A DNA stretch of 64,000 nt from an uncultured Vicinamibacteraceae bacterium. GTDB taxonomy: Bacteria > Acidobacteriota > Vicinamibacteria > Vicinamibacterales > UBA8438. Location: NCBI GenBank assembly GCA_964507425.1, contig CAZDQD010000053.1, positions 12,156 to 76,155 on the forward strand. The letters run 5' to 3'. The notes below the pieces were generated by a model, which had not been told where the DNA came from, ran no database searches, and worked only from the letters and a program-made list of their open reading frames with translations. A program made the translations under genes and the position numbers. How positions within the stretch are numbered: position 1 is the stretch's first letter; the number at the start of each line of letters is the position of its first letter. Shown here piece after piece: positions 4,796-12,628 of the stretch.

Positions 4796-6130
4796 ATGCG
4801 CTTCGCCCACTTTTGGTTAATGAGCCGCTTGTCTGTAACTATGGCTCTGCTGGTGCCGTTCTTTGCCGTAACAGCGCAAGAACTTCCGAAGACCACGGAC
4901 CCACAAACAAACCAACAACGGCTTCGTGTCACGTTAGAACACCGAAGCCGAGCCGAACACCTGACTAATGATTTTAGAATTGGCGAAAAAAGTGCCACGC
5001 GAGCACTTGTAGAGAGAACCAGACTCCGGATTAGGCTTGGCAAGAATACGGATCCAGCTCGGGTTCTTGTAGAAATGCAGGATTCCCGTGGATTGCTGCA
5101 AGATAAACCTTTTTTTTACGAGGACAACCACACCAACACATTTGATTTCTTGCAATTGAAAGCGGACTTCTTGCTGGATGAATTAATTCGAGGTAAACCA
5201 GTAGAACTTCACGTCGGACGCTTCACAATAGACCTCGGGAACAGAAGGCTAGTTGCCCGTAACAACATGCGAAACACCACTAATGCATTTGATGGCATCC
5301 ACCTAGACCTTGGATCGAATAGTTCAAACCAACTGGACGTCTTTATCACGCGTCCGGTGCTCATCAACCCAACTTCGTTGGACAGTAGTGCACGTAATGG
5401 TTATTTCTGGGGAAGCTACTATCAGGAACGGCTGAACCCAAACACGAACATTGATTTTTATTACTTGGGTCTCCATGATGACGGCCGCTTGGGCTACGAG
5501 GCTACGTATACAACCCTAGGAACGCGCCTCAACAAAAGTGGCATGCGTGGACAATTTAACTACGAGCTCGAATCGGCGTGGCAGTTCGGAAGCACAAATA
5601 ATCTGTCTCATTCCGCACATTTCCAACATGGGAGTTTCGGTTATACAGCTCCCCTCAGATGGGAACCAAACCTTTCTGTGAATTACGACTACGCAAGCGG
5701 TGATAGTGAGCCACAGGATAAACGTTTTGGCACATTCGATACGTTGTTTGGTGCACGAAGCTTCGAACTAAATTCGACGGGCATCTATGGACCATTTCTG
5801 AGGAGCAACCTGCACACGCCAGGGCTCAATCTTCAACTACGACCTAAAACGAAACTTCAGATCGAAGTTTCATATCGGCTGTTCTGGCTCGCACAACCAA
5901 CGGACCATTGGGTTGATTCGGGGCTACACGATCCAACCGGCAATTCTGGCAGCTTCCTCGGGCAACAGATTGAAGCCAAGCTTCGTATGGATGTACAGGA
6001 TTACTTTCACGTTGAGTTCGGATACGCTCACCTCTTCAAAGGTGATTACCTAGCACGCGTACCGATGAGCCCGGCGACCCCTAACTCAAACTTTGTTTAC
6101 GCAGCAGTGAATTTCAAAACGCCACTTTGA
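4796..6130 (+). CDS. outer-membrane beta-barrel protein, alginate-export (AlgE-like) family
   Basis: Signal peptide ending AVTAQ. N-terminal LRVTLEHRSRAEH...RTRLRIRLG and HVGRFTIDLGNRRLVARNNMRNTTNAFDGIHLDL resemble the Alginate_exp family. Alternating beta-strand pattern runs to the C-terminus. Confidence 0.6.
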   Translation: MRFAHFWLMSRLSVTMALLVPFFAVTAQELPKTTDPQTNQQRLRVTLEHRSRAEHLTNDFRIGEKSATRALVERTRLRIRLGKNTDPARVLVEMQDSRGLLQDKPFFYEDNHTNTFDFLQLKADFLLDELIRGKPVELHVGRFTIDLGNRRLVARNNMRNTTNAFDGIHLDLGSNSSNQLDVFITRPVLINPTSLDSSARNGYFWGSYYQERLNPNTNIDFYYLGLHDDGRLGYEATYTTLGTRLNKSGMRGQFNYELESAWQFGSTNNLSHSAHFQHGSFGYTAPLRWEPNLSVNYDYASGDSEPQDKRFGTFDTLFGARSFELNSTGIYGPFLRSNLHTPGLNLQLRPKTKLQIEVSYRLFWLAQPTDHWVDSGLHDPTGNSGSFLGQQIEAKLRMDVQDYFHVEFGYAHLFKGDYLARVPMSPATPNSNFVYAAVNFKTPL

Positions 6131-7977: not shown

Positions 7978-8727
7978 TCAGCTCAGCTCCGTTTTCGGAA
8001 GTGAGCCCATTGTCACGCCATCGACACAAGACAAGAAACTTGAACAGTCGGATAAATCCGTTAACACCGCACCAGCTCCCGCATCACGAAGAGCTTGTTC
8101 ACTGAAAGCCCCTGTTGCTACACCGATAGAAGACGCCCCGACAACTTGCGCACATCGCACATCAAGCGGCGTATCCCCGATTACCACAACATCGCGAGGA
8201 AACACCACAGATACGCCTAATTCACGCGCACGAGCAACGGCAATCGGTACGAGACCATCGCGCCCTTCAGCATCATCACCGTATGAACCACACAAAAAGT
8301 AGTGCCATAAACTAAAGTGCCTTAACTTTATTTCCGCGGCACGCGAAAAATTTCCAGTCAGCAAAGCGATTACAAGGTCCGAACGGAACCGAAGTTCTTC
8401 TAATAAATCCTTGACTCCCGGCATCAAGCCTTTCTTCGCTCCCGGTTCGATAATTTCTTCCTCAAGATAGTCAAAATAGCGACGAAAAAATTGTTCTTTC
8501 GATTCTTGGTCCGTCTCGATCTTCGCCTGTTCAAGTGCGTGGTCGAATATGAGGGAGTCCGTGCGACCTGCGACAGGTATGCCAGCAAAAGCATCACCAA
8601 CGCCATACACATCAGAAAATGCACGGTTCAGCGCTCGCTTCCCGGCACCCCCCGAGAGAAGCAAAGTTCCGTCTATGTCAAAGAGCAATAGGCGACGACC
8701 ACCATGACCGCTAGACAAGGTTTCCAC
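7978..8727 (-). CDS. HAD-superfamily hydrolase (phosphoglycolate phosphatase-like)
   Basis: LLLFDIDGTLL (DxDxT), LLTGN and VIGDTPLDVRCA motifs. Confidence 0.8.
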   Translation of the reverse strand: METLSSGHGGRRLLLFDIDGTLLLSGGAGKRALNRAFSDVYGVGDAFAGIPVAGRTDSLIFDHALEQAKIETDQESKEQFFRRYFDYLEEEIIEPGAKKGLMPGVKDLLEELRFRSDLVIALLTGNFSRAAEIKLRHFSLWHYFLCGSYGDDAEGRDGLVPIAVARARELGVSVVFPRDVVVIGDTPLDVRCAQVVGASSIGVATGAFSEQALRDAGAGAVLTDLSDCSSFLSCVDGVTMGSLPKTELS

Positions 8728-8729
8728 AA

Positions 8730-9215
8730 TCAGTCGGTCTTAACTTGGATAAGTAATGCATTTACTTTGGTGACCGTCTCAGACGCAAGAAGCAAAGCGA
8801 CCAGCTCGACTCTAAACGCAAAAATATTTGCAGCAATCGTCATAAGACCAGCGAGTGAGTGCACACCAACCGGTAGGACGTTTGTATCGACGGCTCCTCC
8901 GAGAATCGCTGTCAGCATCGTGACTCCCATGGCCATGGTTCCGATAGAAAAAACTGGACGTCGAGCTCTTGCAACTGCGCGATAGAACTCATCAGGAAGC
9001 CCACCATCCGTAACCGCCTCCCGAATAGCCTTTCCTTTGCCAATGAGATAAAACATGGTCATGGAATGAGCAAGCAGTGTAATTAAGGTTGAAAATATGG
9101 CCAGTGTCACGTGCGGTCCAACATCAGCGGGAACGGCAACTAGAAAACCGGTCACTACACTGTAGGCCAACCCGCTAACACCCAGGAACGTCGCGGTTAT
9201 GAGCGCAGCATTCAT
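8730..9215 (-). CDS. hypothetical integral membrane protein (about 4 TM helices)
   Basis: 161 aa, strongly hydrophobic segments. Translationally coupled to its neighbours (4-nt overlap upstream, 2-nt gap downstream). No family recognised. Confidence 0.55.
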   Translation of the reverse strand: MNAALITATFLGVSGLAYSVVTGFLVAVPADVGPHVTLAIFSTLITLLAHSMTMFYLIGKGKAIREAVTDGGLPDEFYRAVARARRPVFSIGTMAMGVTMLTAILGGAVDTNVLPVGVHSLAGLMTIAANIFAFRVELVALLLASETVTKVNALLIQVKTD

Positions 9216-10081
9216 TGTTCTCTAGGAGATGACTCCATGCCGTTATATGCCGCGGTACGAGCCGAAAGAACCCGCTCAAGCAACGAAACAAACCGTTCGC
9301 GCGGAAGCCCTATCTTTCCCAAACGCCTCGCCCGGTGGCTCCGGTTGGAGTGAAAGTCTGAACCGCCACAAACATCCAAACCGTGCTGCTCAGCAAGACG
9401 TAAGTAATGCGCTTGATCGCCTGAGTCGTGATCGTTGTGGTACACCTCAATCGCACCAAGACCGGCCTCGACAAGTTCGGGCACCAACTCATCTTTACGT
9501 AATAGTCCTGGATGTGCCAACGCGGACACACCGCCCGCGCGTGACACTCGACGCACAACATCAACCGGGACTGCACCAGTTCGTGGCACGTACGCCTCAC
9601 CATCATCTCCTAGCCAGCGGTCAAACGCCTCTTGAACCGTTGAGACATGACCTGCGTCAACCAAGGCTTGTGCCAACATCGGACGACCGATTGATTTACC
9701 TGTCTCCTCAGCAACAGCTATCGTGTCCTCAACATCGATCGGCTTCCCGAGTGAAGACAGCTTGTGTGAAATTTCTCGTGCTCGTCTCAGCCGGTCTGCG
9801 CGTTGGCTTTTCAAAAACTCATCTAGCCCACGGGGAGTTGGTTCAAGAAAATAACCGAGGATGTGAACATCGCGCCCATTATCTACTGCCGTTATCTCAA
9901 TTCCCGGCAGCAACGCCATTCCGTACCCCGCTGCGGCTTCCGCTGCTTCAACAACACCAGCCATCGTGTCATGGTCGGTAACGCTAAAAGTCTTTATTCC
10001 GGCAACATACAGCTGGTCAACAAGCGTCGTCGGGTCCAGCTCGCCATCAGAAGCCGTCGTATGCATGTGGAGATCGATCAC
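9212..10081 (-). CDS. PHP-domain phosphoesterase (TrpH/YciV-like)
   Basis: IDLHMHTTASDG N-terminal PHP motif. Further His/Asp ligands at FSVTDHD, ALAHP and GGSDFH. Confidence 0.85.
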   Translation of the reverse strand: MIDLHMHTTASDGELDPTTLVDQLYVAGIKTFSVTDHDTMAGVVEAAEAAAGYGMALLPGIEITAVDNGRDVHILGYFLEPTPRGLDEFLKSQRADRLRRAREISHKLSSLGKPIDVEDTIAVAEETGKSIGRPMLAQALVDAGHVSTVQEAFDRWLGDDGEAYVPRTGAVPVDVVRRVSRAGGVSALAHPGLLRKDELVPELVEAGLGAIEVYHNDHDSGDQAHYLRLAEQHGLDVCGGSDFHSNRSHRARRLGKIGLPRERFVSLLERVLSARTAAYNGMESSPREQ

Positions 10082-10112: not shown

Positions 10113-11087
10113 CTAGTTTCTTACGCGAACCGACCGTTTAGATTTGCCTTTTGATGACTTCGCCTGTCTCGCCAAGTAATCTCGATATTCACGTATTAAT
10201 AGCTCAAGGTGCACACGTTCCTCATCAGCAAACTCAAGAAAAATACGCTTGCCTTCAGAGTCCTCAAAACGCTCACCATATCGTTTAAAAAAGCGATGCG
10301 AACCTCGCTCACAACGAATACCAACTTTAAAAGCCTCTGCCGCGTCTACGCCTCGTTTTAATTCATCGGCCCCAGAAGCAAAAATACCGTTCGCTGCACC
10401 CTTAAAGAAAAGAAACGTCGGCTGAGACTCAAGCTCTGGGTCGGCAGCCAACAATTCCGAGTAACGAGCTTCAAGAGTAGCAAGATGTTCCTTTTCCTCA
10501 TCGCCAAGCTTTTTGAACACTCGCTTGCCTCGAGGATCCTTTGTCAACTTGGCGGCGCGCGTGTAAAACTCAAGCCCACTTCTTTCAGTAGCAATCGCAA
10601 TCCTCAAGGCGTCACGCGCAAACAGCAATTCGGTCGTAGCTGCCCTCTCCGGGCGCCGACGGCCTGCCTGACACTCATCACACGTCCCGTATATTTGAAG
10701 CACACTCTGCTTGGCTATAAATCCTCGTGCCTCAGCAATTTCCTCGACAAGAGCTTCTATATCCGAAGAGAGAAATTCTGATGATTGATTGCAAGTTTTA
10801 CAGATGAGATGGAAGTGTCTTGGGTGACGGTATGAATGTTCAAATCTAAAGCGCCCTTCACCGAAATCAACCTTACGAGCAATTCCAGCTTCGACCATCC
10901 ACTGCAACGTTCGATAAACCGTCGCCCTACTAATCTGATGATCGTCACGATGCAGGATGGCAACAAGGTCGTCAGCGCTTAGGTGCCCATCTTGGCGAAG
11001 AAAAACATCAACAATAAGATCACGCTTACTGGACCGCTTACCACCTTCTGGACGGAGGCGCTCTAAATATGCGGACTGTGGTTCCAT
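10113..11087 (-). CDS. Fur-family transcriptional regulator fused to a C-terminal rubrerythrin/ferritin-like diiron domain
   Basis: Residues about 10-145 form a Fur-like winged helix (ISRATVYRTLQWMVEAGIA), a His cluster HSYRHPRHFHLICKTC and a second CDEC pair. Residues about 165-310 form a four-helix-bundle pattern with E (IATERSG), ExxH (EEKEH), E (RCERGSH) and ExxH (EERVH). Confidence 0.75.
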   Translation of the reverse strand: MEPQSAYLERLRPEGGKRSSKRDLIVDVFLRQDGHLSADDLVAILHRDDHQISRATVYRTLQWMVEAGIARKVDFGEGRFRFEHSYRHPRHFHLICKTCNQSSEFLSSDIEALVEEIAEARGFIAKQSVLQIYGTCDECQAGRRRPERAATTELLFARDALRIAIATERSGLEFYTRAAKLTKDPRGKRVFKKLGDEEKEHLATLEARYSELLAADPELESQPTFLFFKGAANGIFASGADELKRGVDAAEAFKVGIRCERGSHRFFKRYGERFEDSEGKRIFLEFADEERVHLELLIREYRDYLARQAKSSKGKSKRSVRVRN

Positions 11088-11180: not shown

Positions 11181-11540
11181 TCAGACTCCAAAAGAAGAGC
11201 CACAACCACAGGTCGATTTAGCATTCGGATTATTAATCGTGAAGCCACCACCGGAAAGGTTGTCAATAAAATCAACCTCGGCGCCATTGAGATAACGAAT
11301 ACTAATAGGGTCTACAAATAATTTGACGCCATTCGAGCTAAAAATCTTGTCGGCGTCCCCATCGCCTGGGCCATCTTCAATCATCAGCCCATACTGGAAC
11401 CCAGAACACCCGCCACCTTGCACAAACACCCGTAAACCGGCCTCTTTCCTTTGCTCATCAGCAAGTAAAGCACCAATTTTTCCAGCGGCTGCTTCCGTAA
11501 CGGTTACCGGACCATTGCTCACACTTATCGTTTCTGGCAC
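11181..11540 (-). CDS. erpA: iron-sulfur cluster insertion/carrier protein (HesB/IscA/ErpA family)
   Basis: GGGCSGFQYGL and C-terminal STCGCGSSF motifs. Confidence 0.9.
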   Translation of the reverse strand: MPETISVSNGPVTVTEAAAGKIGALLADEQRKEAGLRVFVQGGGCSGFQYGLMIEDGPGDGDADKIFSSNGVKLFVDPISIRYLNGAEVDFIDNLSGGGFTINNPNAKSTCGCGSSFGV

Positions 11541-11606
11541 GTGAAAGTCTCCCTTACGCGATTAGTATAGCGATGGACTCCAACTTGCTTCAAGACTGTA
11601 TGGGTT

Positions 11607-11672
11607 AAATTCCCACAAACCTCGCCACATAGATATTTCTTCTATTTTTCGACCCGAACTTCCCACAAACCT
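11607..11672. promoter_or_regulatory. 16-nt direct repeat, two copies exactly 50 bp apart, in the erpA / fdhE-like divergent region
   Basis: AAATTCCCACAAACCT at 11607-11622 and AACTTCCCACAAACCT at 11657-11672 (15/16 identical). Confidence 0.5.
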
Positions 11673-11698
11673 GACAGTCAGGTGATACTGACCACCTG
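11670..11698 (+). promoter_or_regulatory. two overlapping inverted repeats abutting the fdhE-like start codon
   Basis: CCTGAC-A-GTCAGG at 11670-11682 and CAGGTG-ATACTGAC-CACCTG at 11679-11698. ATG is at 11699. Confidence 0.4.
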
Positions 11699-12628
11699 AT
11701 GGACCCCACGGACGACTACATACTGAATAGCGCAGACCAGCGCTGGCATCATCTAATTGAAAAAGAACCTGACCTGGCGGCCGCCATCGATCTACAGCGT
11801 ATTATCCTGACCAGAACTCTAGAGCTTTCCAACGAGGCACCAGAAGTGCTAAAAGGTCCGGTAATGGCACCGCCCGGTCTTTTGGACCGGTTAGCCAGCC
11901 ACGAAGCGCCGGTGTTAGATATGGCCATAAAATTTGACACCGATCGCGTAATACCGCATCTACTCGGATTTTGTAACGACTTCGCCACTGGAGGTGCTGG
12001 AGAACCGGCACTTAACGTTCACAAGGCTCTCAAACAAGGGGATATTGAGGCCGGCTCCCTCCTATACGGCTCTCTACTTCGCCAACAGACGTCGATCCGC
12101 ACACGAGCAAACCAGCTGGGAATCTCTCCCGACCTTGTCTGGTTGGTAGCCGAGCTGTCGGTCGCGCCACTTGCTAACCACCTTCAGCACAATGCCCTAG
12201 TTTCACCGACGACGTCTTCACCTGAAGCAATCCGAGCTGCCCAGAACTGGCCTCTCGGCCACTGTGCCGCATGTGGGTCGTGGCCTGCTTTTGCGGAAAC
12301 GCATTCGCAAGAAAGGCATCTAAGGTGTTCTTTCTGCGGAGCCGACTGGACCCCGGCAAAAACTGGTTGCGTTTACTGCAACACGAATGGAAATGCCTTT
12401 CTCAGAGCCGCGGACTCCAAACAGCCAAATCACCACCTTGAGTTCTGCCGAGCCTGCGGTGGATACCTCAAGCACGCCGAAGTAACAAGTGCGACTCCAT
12501 TTGCGCTACTGCCGGTGCTCGATCTTGAAATGACCTATCTTGACATTCGTGCGGTGGAACGAGGCTACGGCCGCCCACCCATGCCTGAGCGTTCAGTATC
12601 CGTAAGTCCCTGTCCACCGGAAGCCTAA
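11699..12628 (+). CDS. fdhE: FdhE-like protein (formate dehydrogenase accessory/maturation factor family)
   Basis: 309 aa. Four Cys pairs in FdhE spacing: CAACGSWP, CSFCGADW, CVYCNT and CRACGGYLKH. Confidence 0.7.
   Translation: MDPTDDYILNSADQRWHHLIEKEPDLAAAIDLQRIILTRTLELSNEAPEVLKGPVMAPPGLLDRLASHEAPVLDMAIKFDTDRVIPHLLGFCNDFATGGAGEPALNVHKALKQGDIEAGSLLYGSLLRQQTSIRTRANQLGISPDLVWLVAELSVAPLANHLQHNALVSPTTSSPEAIRAAQNWPLGHCAACGSWPAFAETHSQERHLRCSFCGADWTPAKTGCVYCNTNGNAFLRAADSKQPNHHLEFCRACGGYLKHAEVTSATPFALLPVLDLEMTYLDIRAVERGYGRPPMPERSVSVSPCPPEA

Follow-up and report, generated by a model that had tools for sequence, protein, structure and literature searches.

A Fur-type regulator fused to a ferritin-like di-metal domain in Vicinamibacterales and other Acidobacteriota

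The stretch of DNA considered here (the window, 64,000 nucleotides of contig CAZDQD010000053.1 from an uncultured Vicinamibacteraceae bacterium) carries on its minus strand a gene which is confirmed, on the basis of family models and motifs, to encode a covalent fusion of a Fur-type regulator and a ferritin-like domain, the latter with all the ligands of a di-metal site. The fusion is widespread in Vicinamibacterales and it has a second, deep branch, all named members of which are Acidobacteriota metagenome-assembled genomes (MAGs). The 324-residue protein could be a Fur-type repressor, presumably dimeric, with a second, built-in and redox-active di-iron sensory site; the likelihood of this reading is put a little below even.

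The single open reading frame (ORF) of 324 codons which an earlier note on this DNA had picked out is present as described in the ORF listing, and both domains are in one frame. Pfam FUR (PF01475) matches residues 15-133 with an E-value of 6e-26 and 91.4 bits (cut-off 23.1), and the match spans positions 3-121 of the 121 positions of the profile, i.e., nearly the whole of it. Pfam Rubrerythrin (PF02915) matches in two stretches with an E-value of 1.2e-10 and 42.3 bits (cut-off 22.8), and the C-terminal 175 residues alone reach 43.6 bits against the same profile. The Pfam comparison that the note had proposed thus identifies the C-terminal half as ferritin-like.

The Fur motifs which had been named in the note are all there: HSYRHPRHFHLIC at residues 84-96 of the ORF translation, and two CxxC pairs, C96/C99 and C136/C139. 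Between the Fur module and the four-helix bundle is a linker of about 13 residues, which varies among members. The bundle contains the motifs ERSG (E168), EEKEH (E198 and H201), CERGSH (E260) and EERVH (E290 and H293), which make up the full E / ExxH / E / ExxH ligand set. E168 is placed in helix A, E198 and H201 in helix B, E260 in helix C, and E290 and H293 in helix D. Two tyrosines, Y175 and Y270, are close to the di-iron ligands, and C259 is the only cysteine downstream of C139.

The probability that the fusion is an artefact, in which adjacent fur and ferritin-like genes were joined by a frameshift or an assembly error, is practically nil. A search over about 5.8 billion proteins gave 120 listed matches, and in all these close clusters (75-95% identity) a single ORF of 316-335 residues recurs with both FUR and Rubrerythrin. 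In a genome scan with one genome per species, at least 481 Vicinamibacterales genomes were found to encode a relative of the fusion, with 72-87% identity. The 80 loci that were retrieved, from the at least 481 detected, align over nearly the full length; they come from many studies and some are on multi-megabase contigs. The region 10620-10680, where the note had considered that two genes might have been joined, is an intact-frame linker (10623-10661) and belongs to an architecture that recurs.

A search of representative sequences gave further full-length fusions at 32-38% identity, which form a second, distant branch. Its two-domain architecture is identical, which also argues against an artefact. 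With a profile constructed from these distant fusions, 1,128 clusters are detected at E ≤ 1e-10; all of the top-scoring 120 have the same architecture. The organism names of this branch, where given, are Acidobacteriota or Acidobacteria bacterium, and in one case (P0213) Terriglobia bacterium. The labels of the 80 retrieved loci are almost all Vicinamibacterales, Vicinamibacteria or Acidobacteriota MAGs; three of the loci are labelled Bifidobacteriaceae, which looks like a binning or labelling error. The phyletic spread, which the earlier note had suggested to check, therefore speaks for a genuine fusion but not for a rare one, since it is common in Vicinamibacterales and extends to the distant Acidobacteriota branch.

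The fusion is known to databases by annotation and is functionally uncharacterised. The combination of FUR and Rubrerythrin is already visible in precomputed Pfam annotation, and the product names are 'transcriptional repressor' at NCBI and 'Fur family ferric uptake transcriptional regulator' at JGI. No description of a Fur-ferritin-like fusion was found in the searchable literature, including a survey of rubrerythrin architectures and a 2024 structural review of Fur, and it is not mentioned in the accessible portion of a 2024 review of metal sensing. It had been anticipated that the architecture might turn out to be a common and already characterised family: it is indeed common, but the literature contains no characterisation that could be found.

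The protein cluster closest to the 324-residue protein, P0001, is 95% identical to it. The window has a GC content of 50.6%, compared to a mean of about 66% in the related Vicinamibacterales loci (L001-L080), and its source is a low-GC member of this group. Long matches of 388-636 residues were not accepted as additional architectures, since they are ORFs with a frameshift or read-through (e.g., Fur...PHP). Several matches of about 300 residues were also rejected as Fur-ferritin fusions and left out of the family, being Fur-Fur tandems. P0209, P0285, P0287 and P0290 (about 290-335 residues) resemble tandem Fur modules in one polypeptide, which would be a further unusual architecture of the Fur family; P0290 has two Pfam FUR stretches, and the other three were judged from the alignment only.

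The conservation of the two metal sites was evaluated in an alignment of 150 sequences (the query, 40 sequences of the Vicinamibacteria branch and 109 of the distant branch), in which the branches share 33-39% identity. The ligands of the Fur regulatory site (site 2; H35, E83, H91, H93 and E104) and the cysteines of the Zn(Cys)4 site (C96, C99, C136 and C139) are each present in 150 of the 150 sequences. The di-iron ligands E168, E198, H201 and E290 are also invariant, H293 is found in 149 sequences and E260 in 146. The ligand set that the note had read in this one protein is thus invariant or nearly so in members which diverge to about 35% identity. Y175 and Y270 are kept in at least 148 sequences. 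Invariant residues other than the ligands are F156, R158 and D159, where helix A starts, and P223 and L226, in the loop that crosses over from helix B to helix C. F225 and F228 of this loop are at least 90% conserved, and residues T56 and R59 of the recognition helix do not vary.

A comparison of the two branches gives an identity of 0.38-0.44 in the helix pairs and the Fur domains and of 0.15 in the linker; among the Vicinamibacteria sequences, both halves reach 0.82-0.86. The Fur and ferritin-like halves are thus under equally strong purifying selection across branches that are about 35% identical. In tblastn comparisons, the fusion protein (73-87%) is conserved to about the same degree as the release factor PrfA (71-82%).

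Many ferritin-like proteins oligomerise, and the role of the bundle could be mainly architectural: as an oligomerisation module, it would produce a dimer of dimers or bridge operators, and its metal would be structural. The B-C loop, with its invariant P223 and L226 and its conserved F225 and F228, could be an interface, and there are members that keep the domain after the loss of ligands (P0169, in which the Rubrerythrin match is also lost). However, six ligands conserved at 97-100% over a deep divergence, and again in a family with the reverse domain order (see below), are far more than such a role needs, and the variants that lost ligands are rare. A mainly architectural role is considered improbable.

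The N-terminal module is of the Fur type, not PerR or Zur. In the alignment to solved PerR and Fur proteins, H35, E83, H91, H93 and E104 correspond to H37, D85, H91, H93 and D104 of B. subtilis PerR. These residues form the regulatory site of PerR, with Asp at 85 and 104, while Fur has a Glu at 104, and residue 104 is considered to be the determinant of the access of H2O2 to the Fe2+ site; Zur uses a Cys ligand and has no equivalent of H37 (PMC4866751). All 150 sequences have the three His and two carboxylates of Fur, with Glu at the position of PerR 104. The Asp residues of PerR at the equivalents of D85 and D104 are replaced by the invariant E83 and E104, and the Cys which Zur has in place of D85 is not found either, since E83 and H35 are both invariant. 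The Fur-type assignment rests on these invariant residues, Glu at 83 and 104 and His at 35, read according to PMC4866751.

None of the curated Fur, PerR or Zur equivalog cut-offs of NCBIfam is reached by the 324-residue protein. For Fur, the best scores are 75.5 bits versus 220 (NF051892) and 65.2 bits versus 146 (NF006999), and the PerR equivalogs are below cut-off as well.

The AlphaFold2 (AF2) model of the full-length protein has a mean predicted local distance difference test (pLDDT) of 84.3 and a predicted template modelling score (pTM) of 0.77. It shows the winged helix and the α/β dimerisation domain of the Fur family, with helices 20-31, 38-47 and 54-66 and the wing strands. Foldseek gives 67 matches at E ≤ 1e-3, and all of the 50 listed are Fur-family chains. 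The best one is the metal-bound, closed form of Fe-Fur (5nhk; TMt 0.87, root mean square deviation 2.0 Å), while the open or apo forms are at about 16 Å. The two CxxC motifs, found in 150 of 150 sequences, predict a Zn(Cys)4 site. The fusion protein presumably binds DNA in a metal-dependent and sequence-specific manner; T56 and R59 are invariant.

Fur proper (from F. tularensis, M. gryphiswaldense and E. coli) shares with the fusion the winged-helix and dimerisation fold (TMt 0.8-0.87), the Zn(Cys)4 site and the His3/Glu2 site with Glu at the equivalent of PerR 104. The fusion differs from it by about 180 extra C-terminal residues, which would form the di-iron four-helix bundle. It also differs, in the Vicinamibacteria branch, by the absence of metal ligands at the positions of the Fur 'site 3', which are R90, F92 and S128; these positions are mostly His in the other branch. 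PerR and the fusion have the Fur-family scaffold in common, but all 150 sequences of the fusion have Glu, not Asp, at 83 and 104.

These metal sites also bear on a non-redox reading of the fusion. The di-metal site could count or store iron: it would raise the stoichiometry or the cooperativity of binding, or pass Fe2+ to the Fur site, and so sharpen or shift the iron set-point with no sensing of oxidants. The invariance of both metal sites fits this reading, and so does the genetic linkage to erpA, the gene of an Fe-S carrier. The site-3 ligands, absent in the Vicinamibacteria branch and mostly His elsewhere, indicate that the number of sensing sites varies in the family, but the fusion persists with or without them. 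The diferrous carboxylate-bridged sites of the ferritin-like superfamily generally react with O2 or H2O2, so that a redox-silent one would be unusual. An iron counter or reservoir of this kind is rather unlikely.

The C-terminal domain had been described in the earlier note as being of rubrerythrin type. The PF02915 match above cut-off and the set of four Glu and two His agree with this description, as does the four-helix bundle, which classical rubrerythrins also have with their Glu/His di-iron ligands, but the term is too specific. Classical rubrerythrins have a rubredoxin-type Cys4 domain and a second Glu in helix C, which is a ligand, and the fusion has neither of them. Indeed, there is no rubredoxin-like Fe(Cys)4 domain in the protein sequence, where no CxxC pair follows residue 139, and no ExxE motif in helix C, which reads E260-R-G-S-H; the distant members that were checked by eye likewise have no second Glu. 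No rubrerythrin structure is found among the top sequence or fold matches. Fur-like and rbr genes are neighbours in other organisms, in an oxidative-stress setting; in contrast to these neighbourhoods, the ferritin-like module of the fusion is covalently attached, and it is not a classical rubrerythrin.

In sequence and profile comparisons, the nearest solved relatives of the domain are TM1526 (1vjx, E 5e-12), a protein from P. furiosus (2fzf, E 1e-9) and 2oh3, which are uncharacterised COG1633 proteins from structural genomics. The next matches are de novo 'due ferri' designs and encapsulated ferritins. The COG1633/TM1526 proteins have the same E / ExxH / E / ExxH set on a duplicated two-helix unit; unlike the fusion, they are stand-alone proteins of unassigned function which have no DNA-binding domain.

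In the full-length AF2 model, the domain consists of four helices, at residues 152-181, 185-215, 249-271 and 278-323. The domain was also modelled alone (pLDDT 87.7, pTM 0.82), and the fold matches of this model are ferritin-like bundles only: 2fzf at the top, MJ0754, the ferritin-like domain of Ava_4496, Mn catalase, and Dps-like proteins whose sites are of the bacterioferritin type. As regards the cage-forming ferritins and Dps, the Dps-like chains are only moderate matches to the bundle, which was modelled as a monomer. With the four-helix bundle taken from the model and the E / ExxH / E / ExxH ligands conserved at 97-100%, the domain appears to be a generic ferritin-like site of four Glu and two His, closest to the COG1633/TM1526-like proteins and distinct from classical rubrerythrin.

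Two other classes were considered and rejected. For the encapsulated ferritin or EncB type, the scores are 36 bits versus 90 (NF058679), 26 versus 125 (TIGR04535) and 15 versus 27 (PF22277), and the encapsulated ferritins have a two-helix half-bundle while the fusion protein has a complete four-helix unit. For DUF2383 (PF09537), the score is 25-26.8 bits versus a gathering threshold of 30.8.

In NCBIfam, the best match of the C-terminal half is the ferritin domain of PRK12775 (E 4e-18, residues 132-304), a fusion with a flavin/Fe-S oxidoreductase. This suggests that such ferritin domains are redox-active partners. The basic C-terminal tail is rich in Lys and Arg, with a net charge of about +8 over residues 305-324 (the median is also +8 in the Vicinamibacteria branch); proteins of the other Acidobacteriota branch have a short, uncharged tail. 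Some Dps proteins bind DNA via Lys/Arg-rich tails, and the tail of the Vicinamibacteria branch resembles these.

The bundle could be a tethered protective enzyme with ferroxidase or peroxidase activity, by which H2O2 and Fe2+ would be detoxified next to the regulator and its DNA sites, in the manner of a 'sequence-specific Dps'. It would shield the Fe2+-loaded Fur site and the nearby DNA from Fenton chemistry, with no control of DNA binding. The complete and conserved di-iron site with its nearby Tyr, as in ferroxidase centres, fits this proposal, along with the fold neighbours (Dps-like proteins with bacterioferritin-type di-metal sites, Mn catalase), the related ferritin domain fused to an oxidoreductase and the Dps-like tail of the Vicinamibacteria copies. 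Peroxidase turnover would, however, be left unexplained in a protein that has no rubredoxin or other electron-donor module, a low-copy regulator would be a poor bulk detoxifier, and the other branch has a short tail that carries no charge. A tethered enzyme is unlikely, on balance.

We infer a scheme in which the di-iron site is sensory, and the inference extends to the metal that the fusion protein binds, its redox reaction, the allosteric coupling and the regulon. Under iron-replete conditions, Fe2+ would occupy the di-iron site as well as the Fur regulatory site; in this state, the protein would bind its operators and repress. O2 or H2O2 would turn the diferrous centre into a diferric one; alternatively, iron limitation would empty the di-iron site. 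The change in the bundle would be relayed via the linker to the dimerisation domain and alter DNA binding, so that iron-uptake and Fe-S genes would answer to iron and oxidant jointly. In Vicinamibacterales, the regulated set would include the erpA-fur transcription unit itself. Since the Fur site has Glu and not Asp at the position reported to control peroxide access, any oxidant sensitivity would come from the appended di-iron domain.

The concept of an O2- or iron-reactive di-iron four-helix bundle as a sensory input to a regulatory output would be shared with the hemerythrin-like sensors FBXL5, DcrH and the Bhr-diguanylate cyclase. These proteins have the hemerythrin fold, not the ferritin-like one, and other outputs, none of which belongs to the Fur family.

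Several observations weigh against the sensory scheme. The bundle matches known folds only moderately (template modelling scores of 0.5-0.6, best E 1e-3), and no electron-donor module is recognised in the fusion protein. The k-mer and palindrome scans of 81 sequences, which covered 160-220 nt upstream of erpA and the spacer between erpA and the fusion gene, gave a conserved promoter only and no conserved operator in 11541-11698. Four of the 150 aligned sequences carry E260N. Lastly, three distant members (P0169, P0145 and P0181) keep the bundle with one or more of the di-iron ligands missing; in P0169, four ligands are gone, as judged by eye, and Pfam Rubrerythrin no longer matches. The persistence of the domain in these members implies that the bundle has some metal-independent role. 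The same three proteins could be used as natural 'ligand-knockout' controls.

The same two modules also occur in the reverse order, with Fur following the ferritin-like domain. This architecture is seen in P0293 and in eight clusters related to it (P0439-P0446), with 69-100% identity and 329-338 residues, on contigs of up to 5.46 Mb; in locus L087, it is encoded at 5001-5990. One member, MSS72144.1 at NCBI, comes from a MAG of Candidatus Latescibacteria (Latescibacterota). The di-iron and the Fur ligand sets are both invariant in this family, which looks like an independent fusion. That two fusions of opposite order each keep both metal sites argues for modules that work together, as opposed to an accidental joining.

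The coordinates of the fusion gene, its domains and its neighbours are collected in Table 1. The earlier note had given the gaps between the fusion gene and the following genes as 31, -4 and 2 nt, which is correct, and its identification of erpA, PHP and HAD is borne out by family models.

Table 1. Positions in the window of the fusion gene, the parts of its product and the surrounding features.
Feature	Coordinates	Strand	Basis or remark
Fur + ferritin-like fusion gene	10113-11087	minus	ATG start, 324 aa, stop codon 10113-10115
Fur winged-helix DNA-binding domain (predicted), aa 1-85	10833-11087	minus	Pfam FUR, conservation, model, Foldseek
Fur dimerisation domain (predicted), aa 86-142	10662-10832	minus	conservation; alignment to PerR/Fur structures
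Inter-domain linker, aa 143-155	10623-10661	minus	poorly conserved; pLDDT dip to about 72
Ferritin-like four-helix bundle (predicted), aa 156-305	10173-10622	minus	Pfam Rubrerythrin, conservation, AF2, fold and PDB profile matches
Basic C-terminal tail, aa 306-324	10116-10172	minus	model pLDDT 49-60
erpA, A-type Fe-S carrier	11181-11540	minus	NF010147, 133 bits vs equivalog cut-off 117
Sigma-70-like promoter of erpA-fur, TTGAAG-18-TATACT	11564-11593	minus	just upstream of erpA
PHP phosphoesterase	9212-10081	minus	family match; 59/80 loci
Protein with no family match ('4-TM' in the earlier note only)	8730-9215	minus	homologue in 42/80 loci
HAD hydrolase	7978-8727	minus	family match; 63/80 loci
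FdhE-like 309-aa protein, divergent	11699-12628	plus	C-terminal half is Cys-rich and matches weakly (E 6e-8), well short of the cut-off

The gene erpA is directly upstream of the fusion gene, on the same strand, in all 80 Vicinamibacterales loci. The gap between the two is 93 nt in the window, where it has no terminator-like site, and 17-242 nt across the loci; erpA and the fusion gene are probably co-transcribed. The downstream linkage (PHP, the 8730-9215 protein and HAD) is frequent, not universal. The link to erpA that had been proposed as functional context is strict in Vicinamibacterales, but it is lacking in the three distant-branch loci that were sampled, where the gene has only unrelated housekeeping genes around it. 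The linkage is therefore lineage-specific and says little about the ancestral function.

The FdhE-like gene is kept beside erpA in 42 of the 80 loci. The Vicinamibacterales MAG chromosome OZ244656.1 has two erpA-fur modules (loci L022 and L040), which are 77% and 75% identical to the query. A PHP-like match follows both modules, although it is only partial in L040.

By visual inspection, many of 30 related upstream regions contain the equivalent of the erpA-fur promoter, CTTGAAG-N17-GCTATAAT; among 81 upstream regions, 22 have the 8-mer GCTATAAT and 16 the 8-mer TTATAGCG. The element TAAGTNATT was rejected as an operator here: it is found in 11 of 80 loci and has no copy in this window. It is about 250-fold enriched upstream of erpA (13 matches in 16 kb, versus 3 in 909 kb). 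In five loci (L009, L016, L022, L024 and L029), it is the half-site of an AT-rich palindrome, TAAGTCATT-N7-AAnAACTTA, which is located 103 to 110 nt before the start of erpA and is a candidate operator of a subclade.

Between erpA and the FdhE-like gene, the window has a 16-nt direct repeat, AA[A/C]TTCCCACAAACCT, at 11607-11622 and 11657-11672, i.e., 50 nt apart. It was rejected as a family-wide operator, since it is not found in any of 86 loci; elsewhere in the window it is not significantly repeated and has no exact copy. It may be a strain-specific regulator site.

Fur is the textbook iron regulator of bacteria, and PerR is the same scaffold turned into a peroxide sensor via its own metal site. 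If the sensory reading is true, the fusion would be a third solution, in which iron and oxidants are sensed in one polypeptide. The input of the transcription factor would be a ferritin-type di-iron centre, a cofactor that is not so far known in this role. A broader claim can be made, which is conceivable but rather doubtful: the fusion would be the principal iron regulator of Acidobacteriota and would represent a new class of one-component sensors, with a ferritin-like di-iron centre as the allosteric O2/H2O2-and-iron input to a Fur output. The apparently independent reverse-order fusion would then serve as a 'Rosetta stone', and separately encoded Fur or PerR and erythrin- or rubrerythrin-like proteins, such as those of the fur-like/rbr gene neighbourhoods, would also be physical partners.

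The sensor hypothesis is directly testable. The fusion protein is small and probably soluble, and cultured relatives exist (Luteitalea and Vicinamibacter), which may carry the gene. Acidobacteriota are among the most abundant phyla in soil and are poorly tractable. An understanding of the fusion would bear directly on their iron handling and Fe-S biogenesis, and the fusion may represent an unstudied way of coupling the sensing of iron and oxidants to the control of genes.

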